DNA of 64,000 bases from Candidatus Levyibacteriota bacterium (GTDB taxonomy: Bacteria > Patescibacteriota > Microgenomatia > Levybacterales > UBA12049): the NCBI GenBank assembly GCA_027459725.1, contig DAIDHK010000002.1, positions 35,752 through 99,751 of the forward strand, given 5' to 3'. A program made the translations under genes and the position numbers. Position 1 is the first letter of the stretch. Every line of letters starts with the position of its first letter. The notes beneath the pieces were generated by a model, which saw only the letters and a list, made by a program, of their open reading frames with translations, was not told where the DNA came from and ran no database searches. This document shows positions 9,512-64,000 of this stretch, piece by piece.

Positions 9512-9515
9512 TAAA

Positions 9516-12337: not shown

Positions 12338-12420
12338 GAATCTCCTATATCGTAATTCGATATATTGTCAATAGATATATAAAGATACTCAGCTTTTTAG
12401 TTCAGCAAAAGACTGTAACT

Positions 12421-35190: not shown

Positions 35191-35213
35191 AATTCTTTAA
35201 AAAAATATAATTA

Positions 35214-36759: not shown

Positions 36760-36786
36760 AGATATGTTAAATATTATAAACTACTT

Positions 36787-37863: not shown

Positions 37864-37918
37864 CTTTATCCATTATAAAGAGGATCGAAGCCAGCAACAA
37901 GTGTGAAGAAAGTTTATA

Positions 37919-38986: not shown

Positions 38987-39133
38987 CTAATCTATGGCTA
39001 TCTTCAGATCAAATTTTCTCAAAAAATACATTACAGGGGGTATATTTTATGACTTATTATCTCGTGAAATTATATTATTATCACATTTAGAATTAAAAAT
39101 TTCATCCTTCTTGTTCTTTTATCAAAATAAACA

Positions 39134-40945: not shown

Positions 40946-40996
40946 ACTAGTTAAAGATGGGTTTCATTGTAGTTCTTTCTACCACAAAATCAAGTA

Positions 40997-42259: not shown

Positions 42260-42269
42260 ATCATTAAAA

Positions 42270-44377: not shown

Positions 44378-44441
44378 AAGTAAACAAACCCTAAAATACG
44401 AAATGTAAGGTTATTTTCTTATTCCTTCTACCTGGTATCGC

Positions 44442-45854: not shown

Positions 45855-45883
45855 ATTTAATTTATGAATAAAAGCAAAAATTT

Positions 45884-46621
45884 TTATATACCCACTACAG
45901 TTGCAAAAACCTCACCTGTATCTTTTCTATCTCTGGCTCGAAAAGAAAAGAACTCATCTGCATGATCCTGTGTACACATCATAGCATCAAAAATATTCAC
46001 TTCCAGCAAACCAGCTGCAATCAATTGCCATTTTACCAGACTTTGTAAGCTCAAAAAAGGTTTATTATCTTCATAAGTTAAATAACCAATCGATTCTGAA
46101 TATTTGTTTTTAAATCTCATTGCCCGATCTTTTTTAATCGAGTAACAACATTCACGGATAGAAGGCCCAATTGCTGATACAATATCAACAGGGTCACTAC
46201 CCAAACTAATCATTTTATCTACTGTGTGCTTAACAATATTGGTGTATACTCCTTTGTATCCTGCATGTATTGCAGCAATAGTTTTAATTTTGTAATCGAA
46301 TAAAATTATAGGTAAACAGTCAGCAGTTTTTATAATTAAAAAAAGACCTTTCTCTTTTGTCAGCAAACCATCTGTTTCATTTTTTATAGAATTCTTATCC
46401 GATAACTTCACGAACTCTAAATTCGTTCCATGCACTTGATTCATGCCAACCACTCCTTGATAATCGGAGTCTACTAGTGAGGTAAAACTTTTTATTTTAC
46501 TTAAACTATCTCCCGATCCAAACTGCATGTCTTTCAACTCAACAGTTGAAAATCCATGTCGTAATCCCAAGTCATTAAGTTCTGATATCTGGTAAAACCC
46601 CCGTTTATTTTTTCTTAACAT
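45884..46621 (-). CDS. pgeF: Peptidoglycan editing factor PgeF (YfiH/DUF152 family)
   Basis: 245 aa. MNQVHG, TADCLPI and AIHAGYKG motifs. Confidence 0.75.
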   Translation of the reverse strand: MLRKNKRGFYQISELNDLGLRHGFSTVELKDMQFGSGDSLSKIKSFTSLVDSDYQGVVGMNQVHGTNLEFVKLSDKNSIKNETDGLLTKEKGLFLIIKTADCLPIILFDYKIKTIAAIHAGYKGVYTNIVKHTVDKMISLGSDPVDIVSAIGPSIRECCYSIKKDRAMRFKNKYSESIGYLTYEDNKPFLSLQSLVKWQLIAAGLLEVNIFDAMMCTQDHADEFFSFRARDRKDTGEVFATVVGI

Positions 46622-47828
46622 TCTTCCTCTTTTCCATCGCCTTTTCTACTGCCTCGTGGTCATCCCAATGAATTTCACCATAACCGAAATTCATAGAATT
46701 TTCATGACCTTTGCCAGTAATTACAACTATGTCACCTTTCTTCGCCAGGCTTATAGCTTTATCTATTGCTTCCTGTCTATCAGGTATTTCCAACAAATGT
46801 CCATCTTTAAATTTTTTATCAGTAATTCCAACCTTAATTTGATAATTTATTTCTTCTACTTTTTCACTACGAGGATCTTCTGAAGTGATAATAATAATAT
46901 CAGAATATTTACTGCTAGCTTCCCCCATTAATGGTCTTTTAGTGTGATCCCGAAGGCCTGCCGCACCAAAAACGTGTATAATTCTCCCTACACTATGCAT
47001 ATCTTCTTTAACGGATGACAATATTTGTTTTATTGCATTAGGAGTATGCGCAAAATCGATCATCACAGCGAAATCTTCATTATAGACAATTTCTTCCCGA
47101 CCAACCGGTGCACTAAAATCTAACAATGCGTTACGCACTTGGTCAGAATCAATTCCCAACTGCAAACAAACCGATATCGCTGCAAGGCAGTTATAAATGT
47201 TAAATTCGCCTATTAAATGATTTTTAAAAGGGAAAACTCTCGGATTTACATCGGATTTTGAATCTAGACCGTATGTGACAACTTTCAATCTTTTTTTTGT
47301 TTTAAGCCTTTCTATTTTAGAATTTATTTTTACGAAAGACTGATCATCTCGATTGATAACCGCAATCCGCGAATTCTGTAATAATTTAAATTTAGCTGAG
47401 ACATAGTTATCATAAGTTTTATGATAATCCATATGTTCATGAGTAATATTTGTAATTACACCAATTTTGAAAGGAATTCCAAAAACCCTATGCTGATCGA
47501 GACCATGTGAAGTTACTTCTAAAACGATATATTCAGATTTTGCTTTTACTGCTAATTTTATATATCGAAGTAAAGCCAAGGAATCTGGATTAGTAACATG
47601 AAATCCAGTATCATATGATTTCCCATCAATAACAGCTGCAACAGTAGAAACTAAAGAAACTTTCTTACCTGCTTGGCGTAAAATATGATAAATCATATTA
47701 GAAGTTGTAGTCTTACCATCTGTTCCTGTTATCCCTATAAATGTTACTCCTCGGGCAGGAAAACCATTTGCTACATGTGCTGAGATAGCTTGACCTAAAT
47801 GATAAACATTTTTTGCTCGTTGCCACAT
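46605..47828 (-). CDS. murE: Mur ligase, probably MurE (UDP-MurNAc-L-Ala-D-Glu:diamino acid ligase), lacking the usual N-terminal domain
   Basis: 407 aa. GITGTDGKTTT P-loop, plus EVTSHGLDQHRV and ITNITHEHMDYH (MurE-like; MurD/MurF carry SSFQL instead). Confidence 0.55.
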   Translation of the reverse strand: MWQRAKNVYHLGQAISAHVANGFPARGVTFIGITGTDGKTTTSNMIYHILRQAGKKVSLVSTVAAVIDGKSYDTGFHVTNPDSLALLRYIKLAVKAKSEYIVLEVTSHGLDQHRVFGIPFKIGVITNITHEHMDYHKTYDNYVSAKFKLLQNSRIAVINRDDQSFVKINSKIERLKTKKRLKVVTYGLDSKSDVNPRVFPFKNHLIGEFNIYNCLAAISVCLQLGIDSDQVRNALLDFSAPVGREEIVYNEDFAVMIDFAHTPNAIKQILSSVKEDMHSVGRIIHVFGAAGLRDHTKRPLMGEASSKYSDIIIITSEDPRSEKVEEINYQIKVGITDKKFKDGHLLEIPDRQEAIDKAISLAKKGDIVVITGKGHENSMNFGYGEIHWDDHEAVEKAMEKRKNVKKK

Positions 47829-47898
47829 AATTAATATTATATCGCTTTAAACACTTATATTATATACAAAATTAAATTAAAAGTGGTTTACGCATCAA

Positions 47899-48477
47899 TT
47901 ATTGTGCAATCTGGTGGATAAGTATCAAAAATTGATGGTAGTGAGTATAAAAAATATATCCACAGACTATCATTAGTATAGGAAAAACTACTAAGCGTTC
48001 AACCCAACTTCCCGTTTGTACACGAAAATCTTTATAAGGAGGAAAACCAAACCGATATGGAAGTGGTAACAGCCATGGCACACCTTCTCTAGTAATCGTG
48101 TCCATAACTAAATGTGAAAAATAGCCAATAATAAAGGCCCACCAAATAATATTCATATTTAAGTGCGGAAAGCTGGGAGTAAGTAGTATCAAAATATAGT
48201 GAAAACCAAATCCAAATATAGCAGCACCAATTAACGAATGTGAAAGAAAACGATGACCACCCAATAATTTATCAAATACACGCCCGAATAATCCTCCAAT
48301 TGGTAAGTTCTTCCAGAGTGGCGCTGTGGGTTGATCGATGTCGGGAGCAATGCCTCCTACTAAATTGGCAGTAATAGCCACTAATCCCGTAGCCAAAGAA
48401 ACAGAGTGAACAGGATGTGTAACTATAATATAAGACAGTGTTGTGAATGCTGCTAAATCATGTGTTCGTCCTGTCAT
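47899..48477 (-). CDS. Membrane-bound metal-dependent hydrolase (YdjM/DUF457 family)
   Basis: 192 aa. MTGRTHDLAAF N-terminus, His-rich, polytopic. Confidence 0.55.
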   Translation of the reverse strand: MTGRTHDLAAFTTLSYIIVTHPVHSVSLATGLVAITANLVGGIAPDIDQPTAPLWKNLPIGGLFGRVFDKLLGGHRFLSHSLIGAAIFGFGFHYILILLTPSFPHLNMNIIWWAFIIGYFSHLVMDTITREGVPWLLPLPYRFGFPPYKDFRVQTGSWVERLVVFPILMIVCGYIFYTHYHQFLILIHQIAQ

Positions 48478-48551
48478 ATTGCAATTATAAATTAAGTATA
48501 GTGTATTATATTAAAAGAGTAAATCAAAGTTAATTATTCTAAAATATCCGA

Positions 48552-48866
48552 ATGAAAACCATCACGATTACCAATGTCACAACTGCTATTAACTTAAAAG
48601 ATAAGATAATTGGTCTTCTAAATACCGCAGAAGCAAAACCTATTTTTTTTCAAACCCGCTGGGGAATTCATACTTTTGGAATGAAATATCCAATTGACGT
48701 TTTAATTCTGGATGACCAATATATTATTAAAGATTTAAGACAAAACCTTAAACCCTGGAGGTTGTTTACTTGGAATCCTATTTACCAATACGTAATCGAA
48801 CTGCCTTCAGGTATGATTAAAAATAAATCTTATACTAAAAATTGTAAAGTAATTCTTAAATTTTAA
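48552..48866 (+). CDS. DUF192 (COG1430) family protein
   Basis: 104 aa. RWGIHTFGMKYPIDVLILDDQ...YQYVIELPSG pattern. Confidence 0.55.
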   Translation: MKTITITNVTTAINLKDKIIGLLNTAEAKPIFFQTRWGIHTFGMKYPIDVLILDDQYIIKDLRQNLKPWRLFTWNPIYQYVIELPSGMIKNKSYTKNCKVILKF

Positions 48867-49075
48867 TCATCTTCTGCCAGTCTTGAGGCATGTCTCCATT
48901 CCTCAGAAGATTTTATATTATGTGTCTTTATCGCTTTCATTAAATCTCTTCCATAAACAACAGTCTTATCTGAAAGTCTGGTATCCTGTGGGTACAGTCT
49001 ATATTTGAATCGCAAAAATTCCCAATAGCGCTTTTGACAATTATGACATCCACAACCAATTGCATGCTTAAGCAA
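48863..49075 (-). CDS. Small Cys-containing hypothetical protein (frame stays open about 45 codons upstream with no ATG)
   Basis: HAIGCGCHNCQ motif. The track start is a TTG. Confidence 0.3.
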   Translation of the reverse strand: MLKHAIGCGCHNCQKRYWEFLRFKYRLYPQDTRLSDKTVVYGRDLMKAIKTHNIKSSEEWRHASRLAEDD

Positions 49076-49272
49076 CGAGTTACCCTCTTTTACAACAAAT
49101 TTATCAACAGCAGATCCTGCTTGTCCAGGTAAGGATTCCGAATATCCAGAACGAATATATCTATCAGGATTCTCATCGGGTGCATGCGGAATATATGTAA
49201 ATTCTAATCTTCTTATTAGCGTAAGATATCACTGTTTATACTCAATTTCAACTAGAATTAAAAAATGCTATA

Positions 49273-49617
49273 ATGCAAAATATGATGAAACCTATTATTA
49301 CTTTAGAAGATTTTGCAAAACTTGACTTGAGAGTTGGTAAAGTGTTAAAAGTCGAAGAAAAAGAAGGATCAGAAAAATTACTTAGACTTACAGTAGATTT
49401 TGGTGAAGAAGGAAGAAGAAATATTCTTTCAGGAATTAAACAATGGTACAAAGCCGAAGAGTTAGAAAATAAACAATTTATTTTTGCTTTTAATCTGGAG
49501 CCACGCAAAATGATGGGTGAAGAATCAGAAGGTATGATTTTGGCTGCTGAAGGAGAGGAAAAACCTCTACCACTGCAACCCCTCAAAGAGACCAAACTTG
49601 GTGCAACCATTAGGTAA
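49273..49617 (+). CDS. tRNA-binding domain protein (CsaA/Trbp111/EMAP-II-like OB fold)
   Basis: 114 aa. DLRVGKVLKVEEKEGSEKLLRLTVDFGEE...SEGMIL pattern. tgctataat -10-like element 12-20 nt upstream. Confidence 0.7.
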   Translation: MQNMMKPIITLEDFAKLDLRVGKVLKVEEKEGSEKLLRLTVDFGEEGRRNILSGIKQWYKAEELENKQFIFAFNLEPRKMMGEESEGMILAAEGEEKPLPLQPLKETKLGATIR

Positions 49618-49671
49618 TAACATATAGTTATTTTAAATTTATTTTAAGTTCCTATACCCCGGATAAATAGT

Positions 49672-51360
49672 TTAATTATCTCCTCCAGTAGGTGGAATAT
49701 TGTAATATGTAAGCATATCTTTAGTGATATTAAACCATGTAGGTGCTGCAGTTTCTGATCCCCATTCATACAAGGTCGGCTTATTTACAATTACCAGCAT
49801 AGCGAACTTTGGATCATCAGCAGGAGCGTAACCTATAAAGGAAGCAATAGTATTTGTCGGGTCATAATGGCCGTTTATAGGTATTTGAGCTGTTCCTGTT
49901 TTACCTGCGATTCTATATCCATGAATACGATAAAACTGTGCTTCTCCATGATCAACGGAATTTACCAGAATTTCATTCATCGTCTTTGCGGTTTGGACTG
50001 ATACGGTCCTTCTGACCTCCTTTGGCGCAATATTAACCACACTACCATCCGGATTTATAATCTGTTTTACAACCTCTGGCTGCATCATAACCCCATTATT
50101 AGCCAAACTTGAAAAGCCCGTTAATAATTCGATTGGAGTCATCGCAATCCCTTGCCCGAAACTTGCAGTTGCAACATCAATTGGATACCACTGATTTTCT
50201 GGTTTTATATCAGCAGACGCCTCTCCTTGTAAATCAATTCCAGTAATGTCTTTGATGCCAAATCTATTTAAAACATCTTCCATACCGGACAATCCCAGTT
50301 TTTCACTAACAAATGTCATTCCAGTATTATCAGAATTCTGAATTACATCAATCATATCAATACCTGGAATATATTTATCATTCCAGGTATGAATTTGATA
50401 TCCACCAATAGATACAGGTCCGCCGCAAATAGTACACTTGGTATATGGCGTAACTAGACCCTTATCTATTGCAGTCGCCATGACAAGCGGTTTGAAAGTT
50501 GATCCCGGCTCATATGTATCTGATATAAAACCATTTATATAATCCTGATCTGTATAATTTGCATAATGCGCGGGATCAAAACTAGGATATTGAGCCATAG
50601 CTAATATACCTCCAGTTTTTGGATCAATAGCTGCTGCCATAATACTCTTGCCCCCATATAAAGCTAAGCCTTTTCTCAGTTCTTTTTCCATTGTATATTG
50701 AAATGCTCTATCGATATTAAGGACTAACGTTCTACCTTCCTGATCAGGTGTATAATTTTGTAACTTTGAGAGAATAGGTCTGCCAAATGCATCATGAATT
50801 TCCATCTCATAAGTAGACTGTCCTGCTAAAAGTCTATTGTAGAAGCCTTCCAGGCCAAAGTATCCTTTATCGTTGCCGTTTGCATCTTTGCCCACAAACC
50901 CTAACAAATTTGCTGCCATCGAAGCTTCCGGATAATATCGGCCATATTTTTCTTCAAACCCAACTCCAGGTAAGTTAAGTTTACTAATCTTTTCTTCCAC
51001 GCTGTTATCTACACTGGGAGCAAGCGAAACCCAGAAACGGTCTAAGTTTAATAATGCGCTTATTGATGCCGGATCTTCGTTAAGAATTGGACTTAAAGCA
51101 TTTGCTACCAAGTTTGGATTACTTATCAGTTTTGGATTTGCGTAGACAGTATAATCAACCTTATCAGCAGCTATGGCATATCCATCCGAAGTTTCTATCT
51201 CACCTCTTTTTGGAGTTACCTTAACGTAGTTTCCATATTGCGCATTACCCATGTTTACTAGTTCATTGGCTCTCACTACTTGCCAATAAAACAATCGCAA
51301 CGCAACAAGCAGAAAAAGTACAGTAAAAGCTATTAAGGTCAAGCGATATCGGCGGCTCAT
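49672..51360 (-). CDS. ftsI: Class B penicillin-binding protein (FtsI-like transpeptidase)
   Basis: 562 aa. N-terminal TM, then SXXK (GSTFKP), SXN (NSDNTG) and KTG (AGKTGTA) motifs. Confidence 0.9.
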   Translation of the reverse strand: MSRRYRLTLIAFTVLFLLVALRLFYWQVVRANELVNMGNAQYGNYVKVTPKRGEIETSDGYAIAADKVDYTVYANPKLISNPNLVANALSPILNEDPASISALLNLDRFWVSLAPSVDNSVEEKISKLNLPGVGFEEKYGRYYPEASMAANLLGFVGKDANGNDKGYFGLEGFYNRLLAGQSTYEMEIHDAFGRPILSKLQNYTPDQEGRTLVLNIDRAFQYTMEKELRKGLALYGGKSIMAAAIDPKTGGILAMAQYPSFDPAHYANYTDQDYINGFISDTYEPGSTFKPLVMATAIDKGLVTPYTKCTICGGPVSIGGYQIHTWNDKYIPGIDMIDVIQNSDNTGMTFVSEKLGLSGMEDVLNRFGIKDITGIDLQGEASADIKPENQWYPIDVATASFGQGIAMTPIELLTGFSSLANNGVMMQPEVVKQIINPDGSVVNIAPKEVRRTVSVQTAKTMNEILVNSVDHGEAQFYRIHGYRIAGKTGTAQIPINGHYDPTNTIASFIGYAPADDPKFAMLVIVNKPTLYEWGSETAAPTWFNITKDMLTYYNIPPTGGDN

Positions 51361-51665
51361 TGTTGATAGGCAAGCGGCATAGAATTTTGTGCAGAAAATG
51401 CTACAGTATTTTTGTCCGCTACAAATCCCATTTTAGCAGCCTCTGAAGCAATTTGCGTATACGAGGACATAGACAGTACTTTCTGCTCCATGTTGGTGTC
51501 TTGAAGCTGCAGTCTACTTAACTGTGTTTGCAATTTGTCCAGACTTATACCGCCTGTGGACATCATATTAGATACTGTCAAATTAACAATTAATAGTGAT
51601 ATAACTGTAAATATTAATAATGTTAATATAATAACGGGCAGTTTCATATATTTATTTTTTTTCAA
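51357..51665 (-). CDS. ftsL: FtsL-like cell division protein
   Basis: 102 aa with a single TM helix. Sits between rsmH and ftsI and overlaps both (4 nt and 14 nt). Confidence 0.6.
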   Translation of the reverse strand: MKKNKYMKLPVIILTLLIFTVISLLIVNLTVSNMMSTGGISLDKLQTQLSRLQLQDTNMEQKVLSMSSYTQIASEAAKMGFVADKNTVAFSAQNSMPLAYQQ

Positions 51666-52545
51666 AAGCTCTTAATTTCGCACTTCTACTTCTAACATTT
51701 GCTGAGATCTCAACTTCAGTCGCCAATACCGGTTGATGTGTAATAACAACACCAAGACTTTTTCGTTCAAAGTCCGAAAACAAATGTTTTACTATCCTAT
51801 CTTCCAATGAATGAAAAGATATAACGACTAATCTTCCCTTACTTTGCAATAAACTACATGCTGCAGGCAATGCTTCTTCAAGGGAGTGAAGCTCATCATT
51901 TACAATTATTCTCAATGACTGAAATATCCTTGCTGCAGCAGCCGTTCGATTTAACTTCGCTGGCATTACACTCTCAATAATCTCTATCAGTTGCTTAGTC
52001 GTCTTTATTGTATTATCCTTTCTTACCTTAACAATTTCTGTTGCAATACCATGAGCAAACCTTTCCTCACCAAATCTACTAAATATCTCTATCAATTCGT
52101 TTCTATGCAAACCATTCACCAAATCCTTGGCGGTTACCGATAAATTACTGTCCATACGCATATCTAAGGGTCCTTCTTTGCTAAAACTGAATCCTCGATT
52201 AGGGTCATCAATCTGATGACTTGAAACACCAAGATCAAAAATAATTCCTGCAACGTTTTTAAAACCATATTCTTCAGCAATTGTTGCAATATTCCTAAAA
52301 TTACCCTTAGCTAGAACAATTTCTTTCCCAATCTTAAAATTTGAATTTTGAATTTCAAAAGTTTTTTTAGCCTCATCCAATGCTTCCTGGTCTACATCAA
52401 TTCCTAAAACTCTTCCACCCTTATTTAATATTTTTAAACTATGTCCTCCACCGCCCAATGTTGCATCAATGTACATTCCTGCAGCTTTTACATTTAAAAA
52501 TCCAATCGATTCTTCTGGCAAAACGCTGATATGGTACTTATTCAT
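51652..52545 (-). CDS. rsmH: 16S rRNA (cytosine1402-N4)-methyltransferase RsmH (MraW)
   Basis: 297 aa. HISVLPEE and DATLGGGGHS motifs. Confidence 0.9.
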   Translation of the reverse strand: MNKYHISVLPEESIGFLNVKAAGMYIDATLGGGGHSLKILNKGGRVLGIDVDQEALDEAKKTFEIQNSNFKIGKEIVLAKGNFRNIATIAEEYGFKNVAGIIFDLGVSSHQIDDPNRGFSFSKEGPLDMRMDSNLSVTAKDLVNGLHRNELIEIFSRFGEERFAHGIATEIVKVRKDNTIKTTKQLIEIIESVMPAKLNRTAAAARIFQSLRIIVNDELHSLEEALPAACSLLQSKGRLVVISFHSLEDRIVKHLFSDFERKSLGVVITHQPVLATEVEISANVRSRSAKLRAFEKK

Positions 52546-52975
52546 GTTTTTCTTCTCTGGACAGGCGTTCTGCGATATTTATTGCATTCTCACTCAAACG
52601 ATTCTGCTGGTCCTCCCAACCTTTTTTGTTCCAAATTTCCACAAAGCGTGAGATACCGGCAAAAATAATTTCATCTGATATCTGGGCGTATTCACGTAGA
52701 TATGCAGGCAGCACACATCTACCTTTATTATCCAGTTCCACAAATGTTGCGTTTCCAAGTAAAAATCTTTGTATCTCTCTTGCCGATTTCTCTGTAAAAG
52801 GTCTCCCCTCAGTCCCTTCTAGCAGCGTCTTCCACATGCCTTCAGAAACCACGATAAGACAATGTTCAAATCCTTTAGTAAGAATTATTCTCTCACCAAG
52901 TATCTGTCTAAATTTGCTGGGCAGGCTAATCTGTTGTTTGTTAGTTATAGTTCCCTCGTACTGTCCCAGTAGCAT
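52538..52975 (-). CDS. mraZ: Transcriptional regulator MraZ
   Basis: 145 aa. MLLGQYEGTITNKQQISLPSKFRQ (MraZ double SpoVT/AbrB). Confidence 0.85.
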   Translation of the reverse strand: MLLGQYEGTITNKQQISLPSKFRQILGERIILTKGFEHCLIVVSEGMWKTLLEGTEGRPFTEKSAREIQRFLLGNATFVELDNKGRCVLPAYLREYAQISDEIIFAGISRFVEIWNKKGWEDQQNRLSENAINIAERLSREEKHE

Positions 52976-53106: not shown

Positions 53107-53649
53107 TTAACCTTGAGGTATATTAATTGAGTCGTCAACTTTATAAATAGATCCATCTAACTTAGTTATTTTCATCTCCAGCTGTACTGAAGTAACTCCT
53201 GTATCATAACGACAAACTCCACTAGAACAAGTACCTAATTCCCTAAATTGAGATGAATATGAAGTCTTACCATTAAGTATTACAGGATTATCGCTACCAA
53301 ATTCCTGAGTGACCTTCTGACCTTGGTTATATTGATTTTGATCACTTAGTGGAATATCAGCCTGATAAGTGAAGTTCCATTCCAAAGACTTAATTCCCTC
53401 TAGCTTATTTGCAACAAACTTGATTGCCTTATTGTCATTTCTTAAAACCAATTGTAGACCAATATCAGATGGAGACAGCGTACCAATGATTTGCATCTGA
53501 TCTCCACTTTGAGACCCAGATTGTGTCTGACCTGCTTGATTGCTTAAACCCTTAGAACCTAAGAAAAACCAAGCACCACCGCTAACGATAAGGATAGCAA
53601 GAATTGCTATTACACCAAATAGGACTTTACGATTTTGCAAATATTTCAT
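53107..53649 (-). CDS. Membrane-anchored hypothetical protein
   Basis: 180 aa. N-terminal TM and a Q/S-rich linker. Confidence 0.45.
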   Translation of the reverse strand: MKYLQNRKVLFGVIAILAILIVSGGAWFFLGSKGLSNQAGQTQSGSQSGDQMQIIGTLSPSDIGLQLVLRNDNKAIKFVANKLEGIKSLEWNFTYQADIPLSDQNQYNQGQKVTQEFGSDNPVILNGKTSYSSQFRELGTCSSGVCRYDTGVTSVQLEMKITKLDGSIYKVDDSINIPQG

Positions 53650-53685: not shown

Positions 53686-54402
53686 TCAACTAATTGAAGT
53701 AGTTACGGAGATATTAGACAAATGTATTTTATTTGAGAAAAAAACTTCAATGGCGTCTGCGTAAAAAGAACTCTCATTTAAAGGTGATATTCTGAAGGGT
53801 AAATTTCTTGACCATGCTTCTACCGCTTTATAAGCAACCACAGGAGTCTTACCCTTCGTAGTAAATCTTATACGAGGATCTGCCGGACGAGGGAGGTCAA
53901 TAACAATTTCTGCACTTCTCGTTTCAATTGCTTTACCTGGAGAAATATATCTATCTAAGTAAATTGACATATCTCCTTCCTTTGAAAATCTTTTTAATGT
54001 ATTTACTGCATTTCTCAAAGATACTGTTGAGTATTCATTATAGAAGGCAAACATAATTTTTTGGTACTTAATCATTAAATTAATAAGAGATTGATTTTTA
54101 ACCTTGGTAAACTCTGGTTCTTCAGCCCATTTTCCGCTTATATAATATGCATAAAATTTCTCAAGCTCTTCAGCTGCAGGAATTGGTATATGTAAACTTG
54201 GAGATGATATTGAAGATGTATCAATATAACCATGAAATTTTTTCCCTTTAAAGACACCTGAACTAGAGTCTCCAACAAAGGATGCACGATATCCTATCGT
54301 TTCACTTGCACCTCCACCGTTTGAGGAAAACGCAACCTGACTCCAATCTTTTGCAGTAGTATCTCTATATTTATTCTTAAATCTATATTTTTCTAAACTC
54401 AC
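53686..54402 (-). CDS. Hypothetical protein
   Basis: 238 aa. No recognisable motifs. Confidence 0.4.
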   Translation of the reverse strand: MSLEKYRFKNKYRDTTAKDWSQVAFSSNGGGASETIGYRASFVGDSSSGVFKGKKFHGYIDTSSISSPSLHIPIPAAEELEKFYAYYISGKWAEEPEFTKVKNQSLINLMIKYQKIMFAFYNEYSTVSLRNAVNTLKRFSKEGDMSIYLDRYISPGKAIETRSAEIVIDLPRPADPRIRFTTKGKTPVVAYKAVEAWSRNLPFRISPLNESSFYADAIEVFFSNKIHLSNISVTTSIS

Positions 54403-56451: not shown

Positions 56452-58440
56452 TTACTTCAATTGTAAAGTTCTATCAGTCAATAAGGGGAACTGATCTAAT
56501 TGTCTGCCGTTATAAACTATAGTGTATTCGTTATCATTTGTACCTGCCTGTTTCTGAATCATTAAAGGCAAAGAAGATCCATTTTGTAATTTGAAAGGTA
56601 ACTTATAGGTCACCGTTAATGTGGCCTTCCCTAAAGGTCTAATTACGGTATATCCTTCAAATACTGTCTTTCCAAGTTGGTTGTATGTTTTCATTGTAAC
56701 TTGTGAGCCAGTATTAGATACCAACTGACTACCTTGAGGAACATAAATTCTGATCCAATCTCTTAAATCAGCATTTAAACATAGCCCACCACTGGCCAAA
56801 CTACAATTAGAAGGTGCATGATCGTTAGTGTAATTAATAGTAACTGTTTTAGTAATAGTTCTATCAGATCCAACAGTATAATCACTTTCTACCGCTTCAT
56901 TAGTAAACAAATTAGCCTTATCTCCCCCGAAGTTAGCATCATTAATAGCCAGATAGTCTCCACTAAAGGGTAATATTTGTCCAGCCGCATTCAATGACTC
57001 CAAACCCTTCTGCGCCTGCGGATCATTTAGGTCAAATAAAATATGTTTTTGTGCTGTTAAAGTTATCATGGACTGAAAAAGAGGCCCCCAGTACTTTTTT
57101 GGTGATGACTGCAAAGCTTTCTGCATAATAGACACTAGTAATGCGCCTAACAGACTTTTCCTGTCAGTTCTCAAATAGTTAACTGGCCTAGATATATCAT
57201 TCTCAAGTTGATATATAACCTGGGGACAATCGCATCTTGGGTCATTGTTTGTTGTAAATTCAGTACCATTCGCATATACAGAGTTATCTAAAATCTTAAT
57301 GGTTGAAGTTAACACATACGTGTCAATAGCAATATATCCATCTACAGGCTCATAATTAGGAGATTTAGCATACATCTGTTTGAACAGTCTCATATTCGTC
57401 AAGAAATCAGGAGATAAATTAGAGTCACGCAAATTATAGACAGGATCGGTCAAATGTAGATATTCCACCAGTGGAGCAGGAGCGGGAGGCTTATTTGGAA
57501 TTGAATCATCAAGCGGATATATATCTGCTGAGGTTTCAGGAGTAATTACACCCTTATCGACGGAGAATATGGAATAGCCAGTTATAAAACCACCACCAGG
57601 ACGAAGTTCTTTATCATTCTGGAAAATAATAAAATATTTCTGAGGACTATTCTCGCCCATTAATGCAGGAAGCTCGGTAATAAAAGGTCTAGCCTGATTT
57701 ACTGCAACTACACCCTCATCTACATAAGTCTGAATTTGAGTTATATCGGAACCAATTGTCTTCCCAAATAACCAGGAAGGATAATGATTAGGATCAATAC
57801 CATCCACCTCGGTTTTTACCTGTTCTAAGCTGGATGCAATATTACCAATGTCAGGAGTAATTTTACCAAGTGTCAAAACTGCTGTTGATATACGTGAAGC
57901 GGCTGAACCACCCACGAAACTTCCTTTACCTTTTAAACCTAATAGATCTGCATAAGGTTTTAAATCGTTGATTACGACTTGTGCGGTATTTAAACTGGCA
58001 CTTCCAGCCTTCATGGCATGCTGGGCGTCGGAATAGTACATGTTTGCAATTGGAACAAATTGCAAATATCCCATCGCATCCAGTTTTTTTGCAGTATCTG
58101 CCATTGCAAGTTTACTCTGCTGCAATTGAGTATCCGCAACGTCTATATTTTGTGATTTAATTGCCGCATAAAAAGCGGTTAAGGAAGCTTTCGTGACCTT
58201 TGCAGAAGCAACTAGATTTTTAACAGGAATACCCACAGCGAAAATGAGTATAATTATAACCACCGCTAATATTGTTACAACAATACCAACATTTTTTTTC
58301 CAATTCTTATTTTTTCTTTTACTTCTCATAAGTTGATTAGAAATAGGTTCTAAACCATGTTTCTCTAAAACTTGTTTATCAGCAAAATCAATTTTTTTAA
58401 ATCCGTCCATTACAGTAATAATATTACTTAACACTAACAT
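56452..58440 (-). CDS. Membrane-anchored extracytoplasmic protein, DUF4012-like
   Basis: 662 aa. One N-terminal TM. ELRPGGGFITGYSI motif. Lies at the head of a glycan-synthesis gene block. Confidence 0.4.
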   Translation of the reverse strand: MLVLSNIITVMDGFKKIDFADKQVLEKHGLEPISNQLMRSKRKNKNWKKNVGIVVTILAVVIIILIFAVGIPVKNLVASAKVTKASLTAFYAAIKSQNIDVADTQLQQSKLAMADTAKKLDAMGYLQFVPIANMYYSDAQHAMKAGSASLNTAQVVINDLKPYADLLGLKGKGSFVGGSAASRISTAVLTLGKITPDIGNIASSLEQVKTEVDGIDPNHYPSWLFGKTIGSDITQIQTYVDEGVVAVNQARPFITELPALMGENSPQKYFIIFQNDKELRPGGGFITGYSIFSVDKGVITPETSADIYPLDDSIPNKPPAPAPLVEYLHLTDPVYNLRDSNLSPDFLTNMRLFKQMYAKSPNYEPVDGYIAIDTYVLTSTIKILDNSVYANGTEFTTNNDPRCDCPQVIYQLENDISRPVNYLRTDRKSLLGALLVSIMQKALQSSPKKYWGPLFQSMITLTAQKHILFDLNDPQAQKGLESLNAAGQILPFSGDYLAINDANFGGDKANLFTNEAVESDYTVGSDRTITKTVTINYTNDHAPSNCSLASGGLCLNADLRDWIRIYVPQGSQLVSNTGSQVTMKTYNQLGKTVFEGYTVIRPLGKATLTVTYKLPFKLQNGSSLPLMIQKQAGTNDNEYTIVYNGRQLDQFPLLTDRTLQLK

Positions 58441-58485
58441 TACTTGTCAACTTGACAAGTCACAAAAACATATAATTACAGCATT

Positions 58486-59157
58486 CTACAGAGCATTTTT
58501 ACCCGAAATCATAGCCCAGGGAGTTTTAAGTATAATCCAAAAATCATAAATAATCGACTTACGACGAGCATATTCTGCATCCATACTTATACGTTTATCA
58601 AAATTTAACATACTTCTACCCGAAACCTGCCAATAACCAGTAACTCCCGGTTTTACGGATAACACTTCGTTCACTAGTTGTTTAGTCTCAGGATAGCGCT
58701 TTTGTTGCTTTTCTAATTCTTCTGGATAATAAGGTCGCGGACCTACAAGGCTCATATCACCCTTTAGAACATTTACTAATTGTGGAACCTCATCAAGAGA
58801 ATATTTACGAATAAATTTCCCTATTTTTGTAATTCTAGGATCGTCTTTTATCTTGTAATTTCCTCCTTTTTGCTGTTCTTCATAAGCTTTACTAAATTTA
58901 GGATCAGTTCTCAACAAATAATACGCATTAGTGATCATAGAACGAAATTTATAAGGATAGAAACGCTCTCCATTTCTCCCTACTCTTTTGGGGGTATCAG
59001 CAAAAATTGGGCCTTCTGAATCCAGACTAATCAATAATGCCACTATAAGTATTACCGGAGAAAAAATGATTAATAGAATAAATGCCAGGACTATATCCAT
59101 TAATCTTTTAATAAAATTATAAAACTTATGCTGTTTAAACTCATCTGTAGACGTCAT
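58486..59157 (-). CDS. Polyprenyl-phosphate sugar-phosphate transferase (bacterial sugar transferase family, PglC/WbaP-C-like)
   Basis: 223 aa. One [25 protein letters not shown] motif. Confidence 0.8.
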
Positions 59158-60239
59158 GTAAGATGCTCATGCTCCGTTCCTTTTAAACTAGCTACAAATT
59201 TTTTTATTTTCGGCACTGACTCTTTCGGACAAATTAAAATAACGTCTTCAGTACTAACTGCCACAAGACCTTCTAAGTCTATACCCACTATTAACTGCTC
59301 TGTCTCATTGTGAACAATCGAATCTTTGCAGTCTTCAAGAATAACTTTCCCTTTCGTAACATTAGCATCAACCGTATCGCTTAATGCTTCTTTCATAGCC
59401 TCCCAAGCTCCAATATCACTCCATCCAATATCCTCAGAAATAACACAGCCATAACTTGTGTCCATTTTTTCCAAAATAGCATTATCAAACGATATTTTCT
59501 CAATTGTTGAATAGACATTCTTAAGAACTTTTTCATAATCTTGTGTCCCATAAGCATTACTAATTAGTTTTAACTTATTAAATATTTCTGGCGAAAGAGT
59601 CTCAAACAATTGCCATAGAAACCTGGGGGTTGTGGCAAAATAACCTAGATTCCAGGCATGTTTACCATCTGTTGCGTATTTTTTTGCTACTTCCAGAGGC
59701 GGGCTGTACTGAAATCCAGTAAATTTATAAATGTTAACATCTTCATTTTTGCTTACTTGCTCTCCAAATTCAATATATCCAACATTTTGATTTCCGTAAC
59801 GTGGTTTTTGCCCGATAAAAACAATACGATGTGGATCTTCTTCTATTAATTTTCCTGCAACTCTTAAGATTTTTCTGAATTTAGCTTCTTCTTTAACCAA
59901 ATGATCGCTTCCCCACAACAAAACAATTGGCTCATCAGGATTTGTCTTAACTAATCTTGAAATTACAAGCCCTACTGCAGGACCTACATCTCTCATTTCT
60001 GGTTCAACAATAATGTTTTCTTTAGCAAGCTTGGGTAATTGTTCGTGGATAATATCCTGATAACGCTCTCCTGTAGAAATATAGATATCTCTCCATTCAA
60101 AACTAGGAAAGAGTTTATGAACTGCGATCTGCAACATAGAACGATCCTGTATAATTTTACCAAATTGTTTAGGAGTATTTTTACGAGATAAAGGCCACAA
60201 TCTTGAACCTACTCCACCAGCAAAAACAATAATTTTCAT
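59154..60239 (-). CDS. Mannose-1-phosphate guanylyltransferase-like nucleotidyltransferase
   Basis: 361 aa. IIVFAGGVGSRLWPLSRKNTPKQF. No cupin/PMI domain. Confidence 0.7.
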   Translation of the reverse strand: MKIIVFAGGVGSRLWPLSRKNTPKQFGKIIQDRSMLQIAVHKLFPSFEWRDIYISTGERYQDIIHEQLPKLAKENIIVEPEMRDVGPAVGLVISRLVKTNPDEPIVLLWGSDHLVKEEAKFRKILRVAGKLIEEDPHRIVFIGQKPRYGNQNVGYIEFGEQVSKNEDVNIYKFTGFQYSPPLEVAKKYATDGKHAWNLGYFATTPRFLWQLFETLSPEIFNKLKLISNAYGTQDYEKVLKNVYSTIEKISFDNAILEKMDTSYGCVISEDIGWSDIGAWEAMKEALSDTVDANVTKGKVILEDCKDSIVHNETEQLIVGIDLEGLVAVSTEDVILICPKESVPKIKKFVASLKGTEHEHLT

Positions 60240-61321
60240 ATAATTAAATTACTTATAGCAATCTTAAATTCTTTCTCAAAGCCTTTCAGACTAAATTTTT
60301 CCGCTTGTTTTCTACAGATATTTGGATTATAACGGAATTTAACAAATTTCGTCAACGCTTCAGCTAAGGACTCAACACTTAGATTATCAAAAAACATACC
60401 AGTCTGCCCATTTATAACAATTTCTTTAACTCCACCTTGATTATATGCCAAAACAGGTTTGCCATAATATTGTGCTTCTAGCGCTGTTAAACCAAAATCC
60501 TCTCTACCCGGAAATATAAAACCGCTGCAGTTTTTATAATACGTTATTAATTCACTATCACTCAACCCCCCCAAAAAATTAATTGTAGGGCCTGACATCA
60601 TCTGTAAACGATAATAGTCATTACCGGTACCAATTATGTACAACGGTAACTTTAATCTATTACAGGCTTTTATAGCTAAATCTATTCGTTTGTAATTAAC
60701 TAACCTTGATACAATTAATAAATAGGGCTTTGAGTTTACATTTTTTATCTGATGATCTTTGGCCAAATTTGTCAGTAACAAAGGCGGATAAATAACCTGG
60801 GATTCCCTATTATAAAATGTCTTAATTTGTGATTGGATTTCTTTAGAAATTGCCACCATTTTATCAGGCCTGCTACTGGCGATTTTATCCCAATTTCTTA
60901 GATAATTAACTGCTGGTTTTGTGAAAAATTTGAAGCTGTGATTTGAAAAATACGTTTCATATCCGCTCCATAAATATCTTGTAGGAGTTAGGCAGTAACA
61001 CAAATGTTTTGTTTTCCCACTAGTAATAATTCCTTTTGCTGCCTCACTAGTCACGGAAATTACTAAGTCATATGAACTAAAATTGAATTGCTCAAAAGCT
61101 AAAGGCATTAAAAATGGTACCAACTCATGTCGACGTCTGATAAGAGGAATTCTTTGCAAAAAAGATGTATGAACTGTAAAAACGTTAGCCCAAGGAGCAG
61201 AGCGGGGATTATATACTGATGTGTAAAGAGGAGCCTGCGGGAACATCTTGTGTAAAGCAAGTAGTACCCTTTCGGCACCTCCCCATTTATTTACCCTATC
61301 GTACACGAATGCAACTTTCAT
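60236..61321 (-). CDS. Glycosyltransferase family 4
   Basis: 361 aa. GT-B GT4 features (KWGGAERV, EDFGLTALEA). Confidence 0.7.
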   Translation of the reverse strand: MKVAFVYDRVNKWGGAERVLLALHKMFPQAPLYTSVYNPRSAPWANVFTVHTSFLQRIPLIRRRHELVPFLMPLAFEQFNFSSYDLVISVTSEAAKGIITSGKTKHLCYCLTPTRYLWSGYETYFSNHSFKFFTKPAVNYLRNWDKIASSRPDKMVAISKEIQSQIKTFYNRESQVIYPPLLLTNLAKDHQIKNVNSKPYLLIVSRLVNYKRIDLAIKACNRLKLPLYIIGTGNDYYRLQMMSGPTINFLGGLSDSELITYYKNCSGFIFPGREDFGLTALEAQYYGKPVLAYNQGGVKEIVINGQTGMFFDNLSVESLAEALTKFVKFRYNPNICRKQAEKFSLKGFEKEFKIAISNLII

Positions 61322-62414
61322 AGATTTTGACCGTTTTTATTGCCATTGTAGTCCAAGAATATTTTTTTGCGTGTTTAATTCCTCTGTCTAATAATATTTT
61401 CTTTTTGCCTGCAGGTAAGTTTATTACTTCTTCCATGGTATTTGCAATACTCTCCTCATCATAGGGATCAAAATAATAAGCGTTATCAGCACAAACTTCT
61501 TTAAGTGCTGGAATGTCTGATGCTATCACCAAACATGAATTTGTTAGTGCTTCCAAAGCTGGCAAACCAAATCCTTCCATCAATGATGGTATTACTACTC
61601 CTATCGCATTTCTATAATAAGAACTCAATTGTTCATCTGTTATTTTACCGGTAAAAACCACATTTTTTCCTATATTTATTTTTTTTACTTCATTTTTTAA
61701 TTGTTGCATAAAAAAATCTTCCCTTCCTATGAAAATCATTTTTACGTCTGGATTTTTGTTGATTATTTGTTTGAACGATTTAATTAGACGATTACAGTTT
61801 TTGTGAGGGTAGACATTTCCTACATGTAAAAAATACTTTTTATATCCAAAGGTGCTATTATTTTTTTTGTTGTCAATCTTTTCAGGACTTCCTTCATAAG
61901 TTACAGTTACTTTAATATCATTCAAATGAAATTTATTTAATACATCTTTTTTTACGGAATTCAGGGGTACGATAATTTTACAACTGCTTTTTAATGCATG
62001 ATTAATGACAGCGGAATATCCCAACCTCTTCATTTGATAAACAAAAAAAGGTAAAGTAGAAGCCTTTCCTGTAGAAAAACTATTAATTATAAGGTCATGA
62101 ATAGTAACAACAAAAGGATAATTATATAAAATAGGTACTGAAAAATAAGGAAAATGCATTAGATCTAAATCCTCATTCTTAATACACATTGGGAACAGAA
62201 ACTGCTCTTCAAGACTATGCCAATGAAAATCTGCTTCTACAATCTTAAATGTGTCTTTCGAAATAACCTCCTTTACTTCATTGATATTCTTCGATAAGCA
62301 AAAAAGTACATAAGAATTTTTCTTATCAACTTTTGATAAATTTGTTACCAATTCTCTGATATATCTTCCTACTCCTGTTTCATCCCAAAGTCGAACATCA
62401 ATTCCAATTTTCAT
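61296..62414 (-). CDS. Glycosyltransferase family 4
   Basis: 372 aa. GT4 features (GVGRYIREL, EGFGLPALEAL). Confidence 0.7.
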   Translation of the reverse strand: MKIGIDVRLWDETGVGRYIRELVTNLSKVDKKNSYVLFCLSKNINEVKEVISKDTFKIVEADFHWHSLEEQFLFPMCIKNEDLDLMHFPYFSVPILYNYPFVVTIHDLIINSFSTGKASTLPFFVYQMKRLGYSAVINHALKSSCKIIVPLNSVKKDVLNKFHLNDIKVTVTYEGSPEKIDNKKNNSTFGYKKYFLHVGNVYPHKNCNRLIKSFKQIINKNPDVKMIFIGREDFFMQQLKNEVKKINIGKNVVFTGKITDEQLSSYYRNAIGVVIPSLMEGFGLPALEALTNSCLVIASDIPALKEVCADNAYYFDPYDEESIANTMEEVINLPAGKKKILLDRGIKHAKKYSWTTMAIKTVKIYESCIRVR

Positions 62415-62521
62415 ATACGGCTAGTATACCACAAGAGCTTAATTTAAAATTTTCAAAACTAAACTTAAGCAATATTGTATAAATTCTTGCAATTTCGAGG
62501 AAATTATTCTTTAATTACTAT

Positions 62522-63940
62522 ATGAAATATATCATTTTCACTTATACGGGTGAAGGCCTACCAATTGCACATAAGTTACTAGAAGAAGGACAAGAAGTTA
62601 CTGTCGGGATAGTAGAAGATAAAAGAATGACATTAACAAAAGTAGAGAAAAGATCGAACGAATACGAAACATCACTTGAGAAAAAAAGACGACTATCTTT
62701 ATACAAAAATATGTTAAATAAAATATCGGCAGTAAAACTGTTAAAACAGATGAAAAAGATCAGAGATAAAGAAAATTATTTTCTTTTCTTTGATTACAAT
62801 AATTTATTCCGTTTCGCAGATTATGCCAAATCTCTGGGTTTTATTCATGGAAACTTTCCAACTGAGAAAGATCGCTTATTCGAAGTAGATAGAGACTACG
62901 CAAAAGATTTCGTCAAAAAATATTATAAGGATATTAAAACTGCAGAGAAGGCAGAATTTAGAACTATTAGAAGGGCAACAAAATTTTTGAAAGAACATAA
63001 TAGAGAGAAAGTATGGGTACTTAAGGGTAAAAATTTATTGGCTCCAACTTTTATTCCTAATACCGATGATCCCGAACTTGCAAAATGGCAAATAATTGAA
63101 ACGTTAGAAGCCTTTAAAGATTATTATGAAGATGCGGGATTTATTCTTGAACGAAAAATTACCTCGGTAGCTGAAATTACTCCAGAAAGAATTTATTATA
63201 ACGGTAAGCTCTTATCACTAACTATAAATTTTGAAAATAAACAAATAGGGAGTGGTAATTTGTCACTACAGACAGGTTGTGCAGCCGATTTAGTCTTTCC
63301 TATTGCTCTTGATAACAAAATAAATAATCTTACATTTCCCCCTATCGTTGACAAACTAGCCAAAAGACATAAGGGTCTTTTCATCTGGGATGCCTCCTTA
63401 TTAATTGATAAAAAAACAGGAGAGATGTATTTTGGAGAATTTTGTCCAAATAGACCTGGCTATAACTCATTTTTTACCTGTCTATCACAATTACCCTCTG
63501 TTCATTACTTTTTTGAAAAAATAGTAGCACAAGAAAATCCATTTGAACTAGGTACAGTTGGCGCATCGACGACATTATTCAATTTATTACGCGATCCTAC
63601 TGAAAGACATCTCATGTCAGGTGCATCTGTAAATTACACTCCAAAAGCTGCTAAATATATATGGTCTTGGGACATATACAAAAAAAAGAAAAATGATAAA
63701 ATGAGGATTGTCGGTTATGATTGGCAGTTGGCTCCCATAACGGGTGTTGGCCATTCAATAGAAGAAGCAACAAGAATGCTATTTGAAAATATAGAGGAAT
63801 TTTCGTTAGCTGGAATATACTATCGTCCAAAATCAGATTTTCTTTCTATGGATTATCCAACCTCAATCTTAAATCGTTTAAGGTATGGTTTACAAAAAAA
63901 ATTGTATTCTCTACCCTTTTCTGTAACTTTTAAATCATGA
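62522..63940 (+). CDS. ATP-grasp-like protein, PurD (GAR synthetase)-like C-terminal region
   Basis: 472 aa. The C-terminus MRIVGYDWQLAPITGVGHSIEEATRMLFENIEE resembles the PurD C-domain. Confidence in a PurD function is low. Confidence 0.35.
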   Translation: MKYIIFTYTGEGLPIAHKLLEEGQEVTVGIVEDKRMTLTKVEKRSNEYETSLEKKRRLSLYKNMLNKISAVKLLKQMKKIRDKENYFLFFDYNNLFRFADYAKSLGFIHGNFPTEKDRLFEVDRDYAKDFVKKYYKDIKTAEKAEFRTIRRATKFLKEHNREKVWVLKGKNLLAPTFIPNTDDPELAKWQIIETLEAFKDYYEDAGFILERKITSVAEITPERIYYNGKLLSLTINFENKQIGSGNLSLQTGCAADLVFPIALDNKINNLTFPPIVDKLAKRHKGLFIWDASLLIDKKTGEMYFGEFCPNRPGYNSFFTCLSQLPSVHYFFEKIVAQENPFELGTVGASTTLFNLLRDPTERHLMSGASVNYTPKAAKYIWSWDIYKKKKNDKMRIVGYDWQLAPITGVGHSIEEATRMLFENIEEFSLAGIYYRPKSDFLSMDYPTSILNRLRYGLQKKLYSLPFSVTFKS

Positions 63941-64000
63941 AATATATAGTAATAGGCTTCGATGGCTTCATATTCGCTCTAGCACATAAACTTCAAATAG
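63938..64000 (+). CDS. Start of a paralogue of the preceding ATP-grasp-like gene; continues beyond the window
   Basis: MKYIVIGFDGFIFALAHKLQ matches MKYIIFTYTGEGLPIAHKLL of the upstream gene. ATGA stop/start overlap. Confidence 0.4.

Follow-up and report, generated by a model that had tools for sequence, protein, structure and literature searches.

An unannotated, phage-linked clade of PurD-fold ATP-grasp enzymes beside a glycan operon of Candidatus Levyibacteriota

A 64,000-nucleotide stretch of contig DAIDHK010000002.1 from a Candidatus Levyibacteriota bacterium, here called the window, carries near its end a block of surface-glycan genes on the minus strand and, divergent from it, a tandem pair of ATP-grasp-like genes on the plus strand. 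Do these two genes modify the glycan that the neighboring block would make, or do they belong to something else? A sequence-only reading of the window had joined the two, proposing that the block encodes a mannose-containing surface glycan and that the ATP-grasp enzymes add an amide-linked modification to it, in what would be an uncharacterized pathway. We read the locus as what are probably two separate things side by side, a glycan operon and an independent ligase pair. The pair is part of a clade of PurD-fold ATP-grasp enzymes that is unannotated, apparently mobile, and linked to phages, and it offers a lead on that family, not on a glycan-decoration pathway. "Uncharacterized" suits the ligase family; it does not suit the glycan pathway.

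The tandem pair and its predicted fold

The two genes and the region that separates them from the glycan block are as follows:

62415-62521, no strand: divergent intergenic region, 107 bp, AT-rich, from the family 4 glycosyltransferase (GT4) gene to the first ligase gene
62522-63940, plus strand: PurD-fold ATP-grasp ligase, copy A, 472 aa, beginning MKYIIFTYTGEGLPIAHKLL
63937-64000, plus strand: start of copy B, 21 codons, reading MKYIVIGFDGFIFALAHKLQI

The stop codon of copy A overlaps the start codon of copy B as ATGA, and the two would be translationally coupled duplicates of one PurD-fold ATP-grasp family. Copy B beyond codon 21 was studied through its ortholog in locus L003, from "Candidatus Levyibacteriota bacterium clean344," which was the closest match outside the window's record (86% identity at the first ligase gene). 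The copy B fragment of the window agrees with the second L003 gene at 16 of 21 residues, and the full-length L003 copy B (463 aa) is 49% identical to copy A of the window (E value, 1e-161), which bears out the paralogy proposed by the sequence-only reading; the N termini that it quoted for both genes were also exact. In a neighbor-joining tree of 76 family members, the A copies and the B copies form two sister clades, so the duplication is old within the sub-lineage. These clades differ at four positions only (170, 251, 255, and 438). Tandem pairs are found in the window, L003, L004, L006/L080, L008/L081, L009, and L090, and also in L091, where one gene lies between the copies; most of the remaining loci have a single copy of the ligase.

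At the sequence level, copy A matched very little. Its sole Pfam match was GARS_A at 19.7 bits, under the cut-off of 27, and its sole NCBIfam match was purD (TIGR00877) at 29.4 bits, far under the cut-off of 288. No family model exists in Pfam, NCBIfam, PHROG, or PADLOC, and PADLOC and PHROGs scans of both ligase paralogs and of the DUF4012 protein of the glycan block returned nothing. A search of PDB sequences with the single ligase protein gave noise only, and the same search with the family profile gave marginal PurD matches (E value, 0.0016). The assignment to the ATP-grasp enzymes therefore rests on the predicted fold. An AlphaFold2 (AF2) model of copy A, built on 51 homologs, had a pLDDT of 91.7 and a pTM of 0.90, and the top 15 Foldseek matches in the PDB were all glycinamide ribonucleotide (GAR) synthetases (E values, 1e-20 to 6e-16). 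The model aligned with the PurD structures over the whole chain (458 to 474 aligned columns; TM, 0.57 to 0.69; 13 to 17% identity) and contains the four-domain N-B-A-C architecture of PurD. Biotin carboxylases and L-amino-acid ligases made up the next tier of matches (E values, ∼1e-13 to 4e-12); they share the three-lobed ATP-grasp core with copy A, but at a lower TM (0.46 to 0.56) and with no match at the sequence level. A fold search of BFVD gave only generic ATP-grasp matches (TM, ≤0.41), and a TupA-like viral protein matched copy A with an E value of 7e-5 and a TM of 0.24. The term "ATP-grasp-like" thus stands by structure prediction, whereas the sequence match to GARS_A is weak.

Conservation in the family is high (mean column identity, 63%). 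The residues that do not vary among 76 members (both copy clades plus 63 others) are R57, N93, E121, R124, K128, K168, E218, E238, K240, D290, E306, C308, N310, R311, R435, D439, and R452, and in the broad family K168, E218, E238, K240, D290, E306, and R311 (N310 excepted) are at least 90% conserved. By motif comparison, K168, K240, E218, E238, D290, E306, N310, and R311 would form the set of ATP-binding lysines and Mg2+ ligands. Because both copies keep the full conserved residue set, the usual ATP-grasp chemistry can be inferred for both, in which ATP would activate a carboxylate as an acyl-phosphate and attack by an amine would give an amide; this mechanism is suggested by membership in the superfamily. 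Both ligases are probably active ATP-grasp enzymes of PurD architecture with a different substrate pair.

Could the pair simply be a genuine but divergent PurD (GAR synthetase) that was duplicated in tandem? Its only sequence-family matches are to purD and GARS_A, its fold agrees with that of PurD over all four domains, and JGI and UniRef name some family members "phosphoribosylamine-glycine ligase." The likeness to PurD (TIGR00877; GARS_N, GARS_A, and GARS_C) extends to the Mg/ATP motif, which is E-F-C-x-N-R in the ligase family (FGEFCPNR) and E-F-N-C-R in PurD (EFNCR), to a related C-terminal YR.D motif, and to a mechanism, acyl-phosphate formation followed by amine attack, that is likely shared. 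The N-terminal loop of the ligase reads TGEGLPIA where that of PurD reads GGREHA. Across 76 close members and 76 sequences from the broad alignment (152 in total), the PurD signature R[LFM]GDPE was not found once, and at this site copy A of the window reads FGEFCPNRPGYNS, with the arginine retained and the GDPE portion gone. In the Aquifex enzyme, Arg287 and Glu292 bind glycine (PMC8880213). Both residues lie within the signature. Since the signature motifs of PurD are missing, the acyl substrate would not be glycine, nor the amine phosphoribosylamine. The ligase family also has an extra helical insert at approximately residues 31 to 66 and a conserved C-terminal tail of ∼35 residues (DYPTSILNR), and it occurs in phage virion modules, with inteins and HAD-like fusions and outside any purine-pathway context. 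The sequence-only reading had named a characterized PurD with purM and purN neighbors as the result that would speak against it; the score of 29.4 bits against 288 is not that of such an enzyme, and no pur gene (purM, purN, or others) was found in the Pfam-annotated flanks of any ligase locus examined. Judged by score, by the missing signature, and by the neighbors, together with 13 to 17% identity to the solved structures, the pair is not PurD, and we put the probability of a true GAR synthetase close to nil.

Phage relatives and cellular members of the family

The close family of copy A comprised 455 homologs at an E value of ≤1e-3, and an exhaustive profile search yielded 586 family representatives at 50% clustering. 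Only ∼3 of these 586 make up the cellular clade; the remainder are 25 to 45% identical and far more diverse. Viral contigs were scanned with alignment A1, as the broad alignment A3 was too diverse to serve as a query; the phage-type protein P0147, used as a single query, gave no match there, and a tblastn search of GenBank phages (INPHARED) with P0147 or with the window protein retrieved no homolog. The members whose context could be retrieved sit on phage contigs, namely, L083 (identified by VirSorter), L084, the contig encoding P0177, and five IMG/VR genomes of 24 to 42 kb (L085 to L089). On these contigs, the ligase gene ends a co-directional block that encodes minor tail, virion structural, transglycosylase-like, and endolysin-like proteins, and it adjoins a GroES-like gene and/or a free-standing HNH endonuclease. 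An unannotated protein of 743 to 1,124 aa follows the ligase in L084, L087, L089, and the P0177 contig, and M23-type lysins lie further downstream on several contigs. The P0177 contig also encodes Mom, Dam, and N6_N4 methyltransferase genes. In the phage-type subfamily, the longest contigs cluster at 38 to 44 kb, a pile-up that suggests complete genomes, and the ligase is a core gene of these ∼38- to 44-kb uncultivated phages.

Some phage-type homologs carry inteins or fused domains. LAGLIDADG inteins interrupt four of them (P0163, P0188, P0203, and P0207) between Glu-Phe/Tyr and Cys308 of the FGEFCPNR motif, at profile position ∼304/305, which corresponds to residues 307/308 of the window protein; the junctions read GEY/CFSEDTE and FFSSN/CPMRFGW. 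In at least 10 representatives (P0131, P0136, P0145, P0153, P0170, P0176, P0186, and P0201 to P0203), an accessory domain of ∼115 aa precedes the ligase, and in P0137 the same domain is at the C terminus. A ligase with the accessory HAD-like domain is also encoded at L088 9632-11497. The motifs of this domain are DxDG[TV], I[IV]TG, K, and [ED][DN]; it had no Pfam match and no meaningful match when its profile was searched against PDB sequences. Its AF2 model (pLDDT, 92.5) was nearest to capless HAD phosphatases, including the T4 Pnkp 3'-phosphatase, MDP-1, and Nir2 LNS2 (TM, 0.55 to 0.66, with weak E values of ∼0.01). By eye only, P0169 and P0177 have a different C-terminal extension with similar motifs, and other representatives have a C-terminal extension resembling a coiled coil followed by a beta-rich domain. 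We found no relevant description of a PurD-like phage or intein family in the published literature.

Among cellular genomes, a scan of species representatives identified 75 ligase loci. Many are from Levyibacteriota and other Patescibacteria, with several paralogs per Levyibacteriota genome; genome DAIDHL01 has at least four ligase copies on three contigs. Outside the candidate phyla radiation (CPR), family members form clades in Coxiellales (which takes in the complete Aquicella lusitana chromosome), in Udaeobacter and other Verrucomicrobiota (GC, 0.54), and in Anaerolineales (GC, 0.55). All of these copies are ∼50% identical to the window protein, and their distribution is patchy. The family looks horizontally mobile, and its cellular members may be a narrow, highly conserved offshoot of a phage-diverse family that spread into Levyibacteriota, Coxiellales, Udaeobacter, and Anaerolineales; from relative diversity, we infer that transfer went from phage to cell. 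Metagenome-assembled genomes labeled "uncultured Gammaproteobacteria bacterium" (L006, L007, L039, L052, and others) carry ligases near-identical to the Levyibacteriota ones. Those labels look unreliable, given the CPR-like GC content and the CPR-like order of dcw and Mur genes. In two Verrucomicrobiota loci, the ligase copies (L077 9899-11411 and L079 5148-6519) are split into two or three open reading frames (ORFs) and are probably pseudogenes or assembly frameshifts.

Most single-copy members are stand-alone genes; others recur with particular partners. A conserved protein of 145 to 170 aa with no family assignment (motifs MRYDDVGDY, LHEFIEY, and H..AN..ER) is encoded directly beside the ligase, in either orientation, at 28 loci within L013 to L076 (e.g., L025 11407-11844 and L039 3387-3863), and a homolog of it occurs on phage contig L084 (16391-16816; E value, 3.5e-13) before an M23 lysin. 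At 14 loci, a convergent Amidohydro_2 gene runs ∼11 nt into the 3' end of the ligase; these include L012 and the Udaeobacter-type loci L016, L021, L024, L035, L038, L041, L044, L045, L051, and L058. Neither the small partner protein nor the amidohydrolase is present in the window. Upstream of the ligase, Udaeobacter-type loci also encode a hexapeptide (LbH) protein and an unannotated protein of ∼298 aa, with a chlorite-dismutase-like gene nearby and, in five of them, a HAD hydrolase. PAP2 and NTP_transferase genes are recurrent near single-copy family members. In Coxiellales, the ligase gene stands alone amid unrelated neighbors; in Aquicella lusitana (L001), a PNP_UDP_1 nucleoside phosphorylase gene is directly upstream, and two convergent genes are directly downstream (11428-12851), one unannotated (251 aa) and one Ntox11-like (221 aa).

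The glycan operon and the neighborhood of the pair

The genes of the minus-strand block, in the order in which they are transcribed, are as follows:

61296-62414, minus strand: GT4 glycosyltransferase, 372 aa, opening the block (Pfam Glycos_transf_1, 112 bits; Glyco_transf_4, 33 bits)
60236-61321, minus strand: second GT4 glycosyltransferase, 361 aa (Pfam Glycos_transf_1, 105 bits)
59154-60239, minus strand: ManC-like sugar-1-phosphate nucleotidylyltransferase, 361 aa (NTP_transferase, 86 bits; ManC_GMP_beta-helix, 30 bits)
58486-59157, minus strand: small monotopic polyprenyl-phosphate phosphoglycosyl transferase (PGT) of the PglC/WbaP-C-terminal type, 223 aa (Bac_transf, PF02397, 207.6 bits)
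56452-58440, minus strand: DUF4012 membrane protein, 662 aa, closing the glycan-type part of the block (PF13196, 71.5 bits; cut-off, 28; residues 266 to 399)

The identities that the sequence-only reading had given to these genes and to the tandem ATP-grasp paralogs were all confirmed, by profile matches and by fold, and the search for DUF4012 that it had suggested gave a clear match. It had also placed the DUF4012 gene at the head of the block, and here it was mistaken: a GT4 gene comes first, and the DUF4012 gene comes last. The two GT4 genes are paralogous and fall in one BLAST cluster (c40); the Glyco_transf_4 match of the first (33 bits) is above the cut-off, and that of the second (22 bits) is below it. 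The ManC-like enzyme matches TIGR01479 at 225.9 bits, under the equivalog cut-off of 372.95, over model positions 4 to 350 of 467, and is without the PMI cupin domain, so that it does not have the bifunctional GMP plus PMI architecture of ManC; it is probably a mannose-1-phosphate guanylyltransferase. In the PGT, the Bac_transf model is matched nearly whole (positions 1 to 178 of 179), the matches to TIGR03025 and TIGR03022 are confined to the C-terminal catalytic parts of those models, and every NCBIfam equivalog score is under its cut-off. Its sequence has a single hydrophobic helix, which is N-terminal and contains an S-P pair, and the motif LDEVPQL, whose Asp-Glu pair would be the catalytic dyad, as in PglC. 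The DUF4012 protein has one hydrophobic segment, which is N-terminal (VGIVVTILAVVIIILIFAVGIPV).

The genes of the block are closely spaced, with overlaps of 26, 4, and 4 nt followed by gaps of 45 nt (between the Bac_transf and DUF4012 genes) and 30 nt. Beyond DUF4012, the same strand runs on at gaps of 30 to 47 nt through recO, glyS, and two unannotated ORFs, and for this reason the transcription unit may include non-glycan genes; after a further gap of 131 nt come mraZ and rsmH. L003 keeps the glycan operon in identical gene order, with the DUF4012 gene in the same position downstream of the Bac_transf gene. We found no Wzz, Wzx, or Wzy gene inside the window. The block would be an ordinary polyprenyl-phosphate-linked glycan operon of the monoderm or CPR type, in which the small PGT would prime the lipid carrier, the ManC-like enzyme would supply a GDP-hexose, probably GDP-mannose, and the two GT4 enzymes would extend the glycan, with DUF4012 in an accessory role, as the membrane protein that typically goes with the priming transferase. 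This is a known kind of locus. DUF4012 adjoins the priming transferase in a Bifidobacterium exopolysaccharide (EPS) locus (PMC5412050), and the family is enriched in CPR and Gram-positive bacteria (PMC6744442). The likeness to such EPS loci lies in the combination of a priming transferase, DUF4012, and glycosyltransferase genes (PMC5412050); unlike in those loci, the PGT here is of the short, 223-aa form, and Wzy_C and PMT_2 genes are found beyond the pair in L003.

The neighborhood of the ligase pair varies among genomes. The pair adjoins the glycan operon in the window and in its 86% relative L003 only. In L003, further glycan genes lie beyond the pair, encoding a GT4 enzyme, PMT_2, a 1,063-aa Wzy_C protein, a family 2 glycosyltransferase, a hexapeptide acyltransferase, and another GT4 enzyme. 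At L004 and L080, the pair diverges from an operon of Mur-ligase, MurC, MurA, GlmU-like, and GlmS genes, with ftsI, ftsL, and rsmH on the other side; on the plus strand of L004 (10001-15423), ligase A and ligase B form a four-gene operon with an ATP-grasp_3 protein and a LysA/FslC-like PLP decarboxylase. The neighbors of the pair in L081 and L009 are a DNA ligase and a protein of the TIGR00375 family. In L090, two SET-domain genes (10791-11537 and 11534-11938) follow the pair, and Asparaginase_2, GNAT, MR_MLE, and M20 genes precede it. In L091, a SET-domain gene (9401-9820) lies between the copies, AdoMet_dc follows, and MurT/GatD is ∼4 kb upstream. A SET-domain gene also lies directly beside tandem ligase genes in L010 (9274-9741); small SET-domain (lysine-methyltransferase-like) genes are thus found beside or between ligase genes in three genomes and are an unusual bacterial neighbor.

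The window is AT-rich throughout (31 to 40% GC), and its gene content and nearest relatives assign it to Levyibacteriota, a lineage of the CPR (Patescibacteria). Elsewhere in it, the two ORFs of the interval between glyS and mraZ (53107-53649, 180 aa, and 53686-54402, 238 aa; both on the minus strand) had no Pfam match, and the 180-aa ORF has an N-terminal hydrophobic segment. A dcw-type cluster follows on the minus strand (33886-52975), with mraZ, rsmH, an unscanned ORF of 562 aa in the place of ftsI, a 407-aa Mur ligase without the N-terminal domain, a Cu-oxidase_4 (PgeF/YfiH-like) gene, MurC, MurA, a separate NTP_transferase, a GlmU-like gene, MraY, FtsW, MurG, and FtsA. No Ddl gene was present among the scanned ORFs of this cluster, although absence from the genome cannot be inferred from 64 kb. 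We considered the pair as a stand-in for Ddl or for a Mur ligase and did not adopt this idea, as the family is also found in bacteria with normal cell walls. Across the 64-kb window, there were no tRNA genes and no Rfam matches at gathering thresholds. A scan for promoters and terminators gave the same picture as shuffled sequence, with 47 promoter-scan sites against 46.8 expected.

Candidate reactions and rival explanations

What, then, might the pair join? We lean modestly toward a ligase pair that is independent of the glycan operon and acts on an amine, peptide, or phospho-type substrate, probably one related to the envelope. The substrate would be an amino-acid, peptide, amine-type, or phosphorylated envelope-related molecule, and the two copies would carry out two related ligations or form a heteromer. 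In several genomes, the neighbors of the ligase are of an envelope, peptide, or polyamine type (Mur ligases, MurT/GatD, a LysA-like decarboxylase, AdoMet_dc, PAP2, NTP-transferases, and the dipeptide-epimerase-like MR_MLE). Enzymes of the capless HAD type usually have macromolecular substrates or depend on a partner domain to provide the cap, and the fused HAD-like domain thus points to a phosphorylated or polymeric substrate. Together, the HAD-fold fusion, the ATP-grasp_3 and LysA-like genes of L004, the MurT/GatD and AdoMet_dc genes of L091, and the PAP2 and NTP_transferase neighbors hint at a phosphorylated or envelope substrate. More tentatively, we propose a new PurD-fold ligase family, phage-born or phage-diversified, that Levyibacteriota captured and amplified and that was passed on to Coxiellales, Udaeobacter, and Anaerolineales, with a novel ATP-grasp reaction such as ligation to an envelope or nucleic-acid substrate that is phosphorylated or polymeric. 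Several points weigh against these proposals. The direction of transfer from phage to cell was judged by relative diversity only; the envelope or amine flavor of the neighbors is anecdotal; the family residues were mapped onto the catalytic residues of PurD by motif comparison and a weak HMM alignment; and in L003 the pair sits between two blocks of glycan genes, so that a lineage-specific role in glycan decoration has some room.

The proposal that both ATP-grasp enzymes attach an amide-linked amino acid or aminoalcohol to the mannose-containing glycan of the adjacent operon draws on this placement in L003 and on the divergent arrangement in the window, across an intergenic region of 107 bp. 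It also has a precedent in the capsule of Campylobacter jejuni, where Cj1438C, the C-terminal domain of Cj1438, is an ATP-grasp amide ligase of a surface-glycan locus that joins serinol-phosphate or ethanolamine-phosphate to glucuronic acid, after which the phosphatase Cj1435 dephosphorylates the product (PMC11800379); a parallel to this phosphatase step is the HAD-fold domain that some relatives of the window proteins carry as a fusion. But the pair adjoins the glycan operon in only two genomes, which are close relatives, the neighbors differ at no fewer than six other tandem loci (the linkage is lost in L004, L080, L081, L090, and L091), and the Coxiellales, Anaerolineales, and phage members are without adjoining glycan genes. 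Neither the window block nor the extended L003 locus contains a gene for the synthesis of uronic acid or another carboxy-sugar. Further, Cj1438C has a TupA-like fold, whereas the window proteins are stand-alone and PurD-like, the best PDB matches of copy A being PurD and then biotin carboxylases. An amide-decorated mannose glycan, as suggested by the sequence-only reading, is not supported, its basis being adjacency in one lineage, and we consider it quite unlikely.

Nucleotide chemistry is a fairly unlikely alternative, in which the family would modify a nucleotide, a nucleoside-phosphate, or a nucleic-acid end, with retention of the ancestral preference of PurD for a phosphoribosyl-type amine and a part in genome modification or repair in phages. 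Such a role would agree with a nearest fold that is PurD rather than a peptide or glycan ligase, with the inteins and free-standing HNH endonucleases at the phage genes, which are typical of nucleotide-metabolism and replication genes, with an accessory domain nearest in fold to the T4 Pnkp 3'-phosphatase, with the nucleoside phosphorylase gene in Aquicella, and with the Mom, Dam, and N6_N4 methyltransferase genes of the P0177 contig. Yet the substrate motifs of PurD are missing (RxGDPE and GGREHA), the phage gene is in the virion and lysis module rather than the replication module, the Foldseek E value of the HAD-like domain is weak, and the phosphorylase adjacency was seen in Aquicella lusitana only, among the loci examined. 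A conflict system, with the ligase as a phage-derived toxin, defense, or counter-defense factor and the small neighbor or the amidohydrolase as its antagonist or partner, could account for the patchy distribution, suggestive of horizontal transfer, at ∼50% identity across phyla, for the several copies per genome, and for the variable neighbors, which include Fic, an Ntox11-like protein, a type IIG restriction-modification enzyme, and GIY-YIG. The tight two-gene modules with the 145- to 170-aa protein (28 loci) or the Amidohydro_2 enzyme (14 loci) and the occurrence of the small partner on a phage contig would also fit. We hold this to be highly unlikely, as there was no PADLOC match, the window pair has neither partner, and the strong conservation and stable retention of multiple paralogs in tiny CPR genomes suggest a housekeeping role.

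With the pair read as a member of a PurD-fold ligase family of its own, the glycan operon adds little, since loci with PGT, DUF4012, and GT4 genes are already established as typical features of CPR and Gram-positive genomes. The locus owes its value to the neighboring pair, which represents a large, strongly conserved family with a confidently predicted enzyme fold and what appears to be an intact active site. The family is sometimes misannotated as PurD, is kept as several paralogs in tiny CPR genomes, and belongs to the core genes of a widespread group of phages. To our knowledge, CPR bacteria are without de novo purine synthesis, and the annotation "PurD" is therefore misleading for these CPR genes. 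The reaction of the ligases, once identified, would fill a gap in CPR physiology and would explain the presence of an ATP-dependent ligase within a phage virion module.

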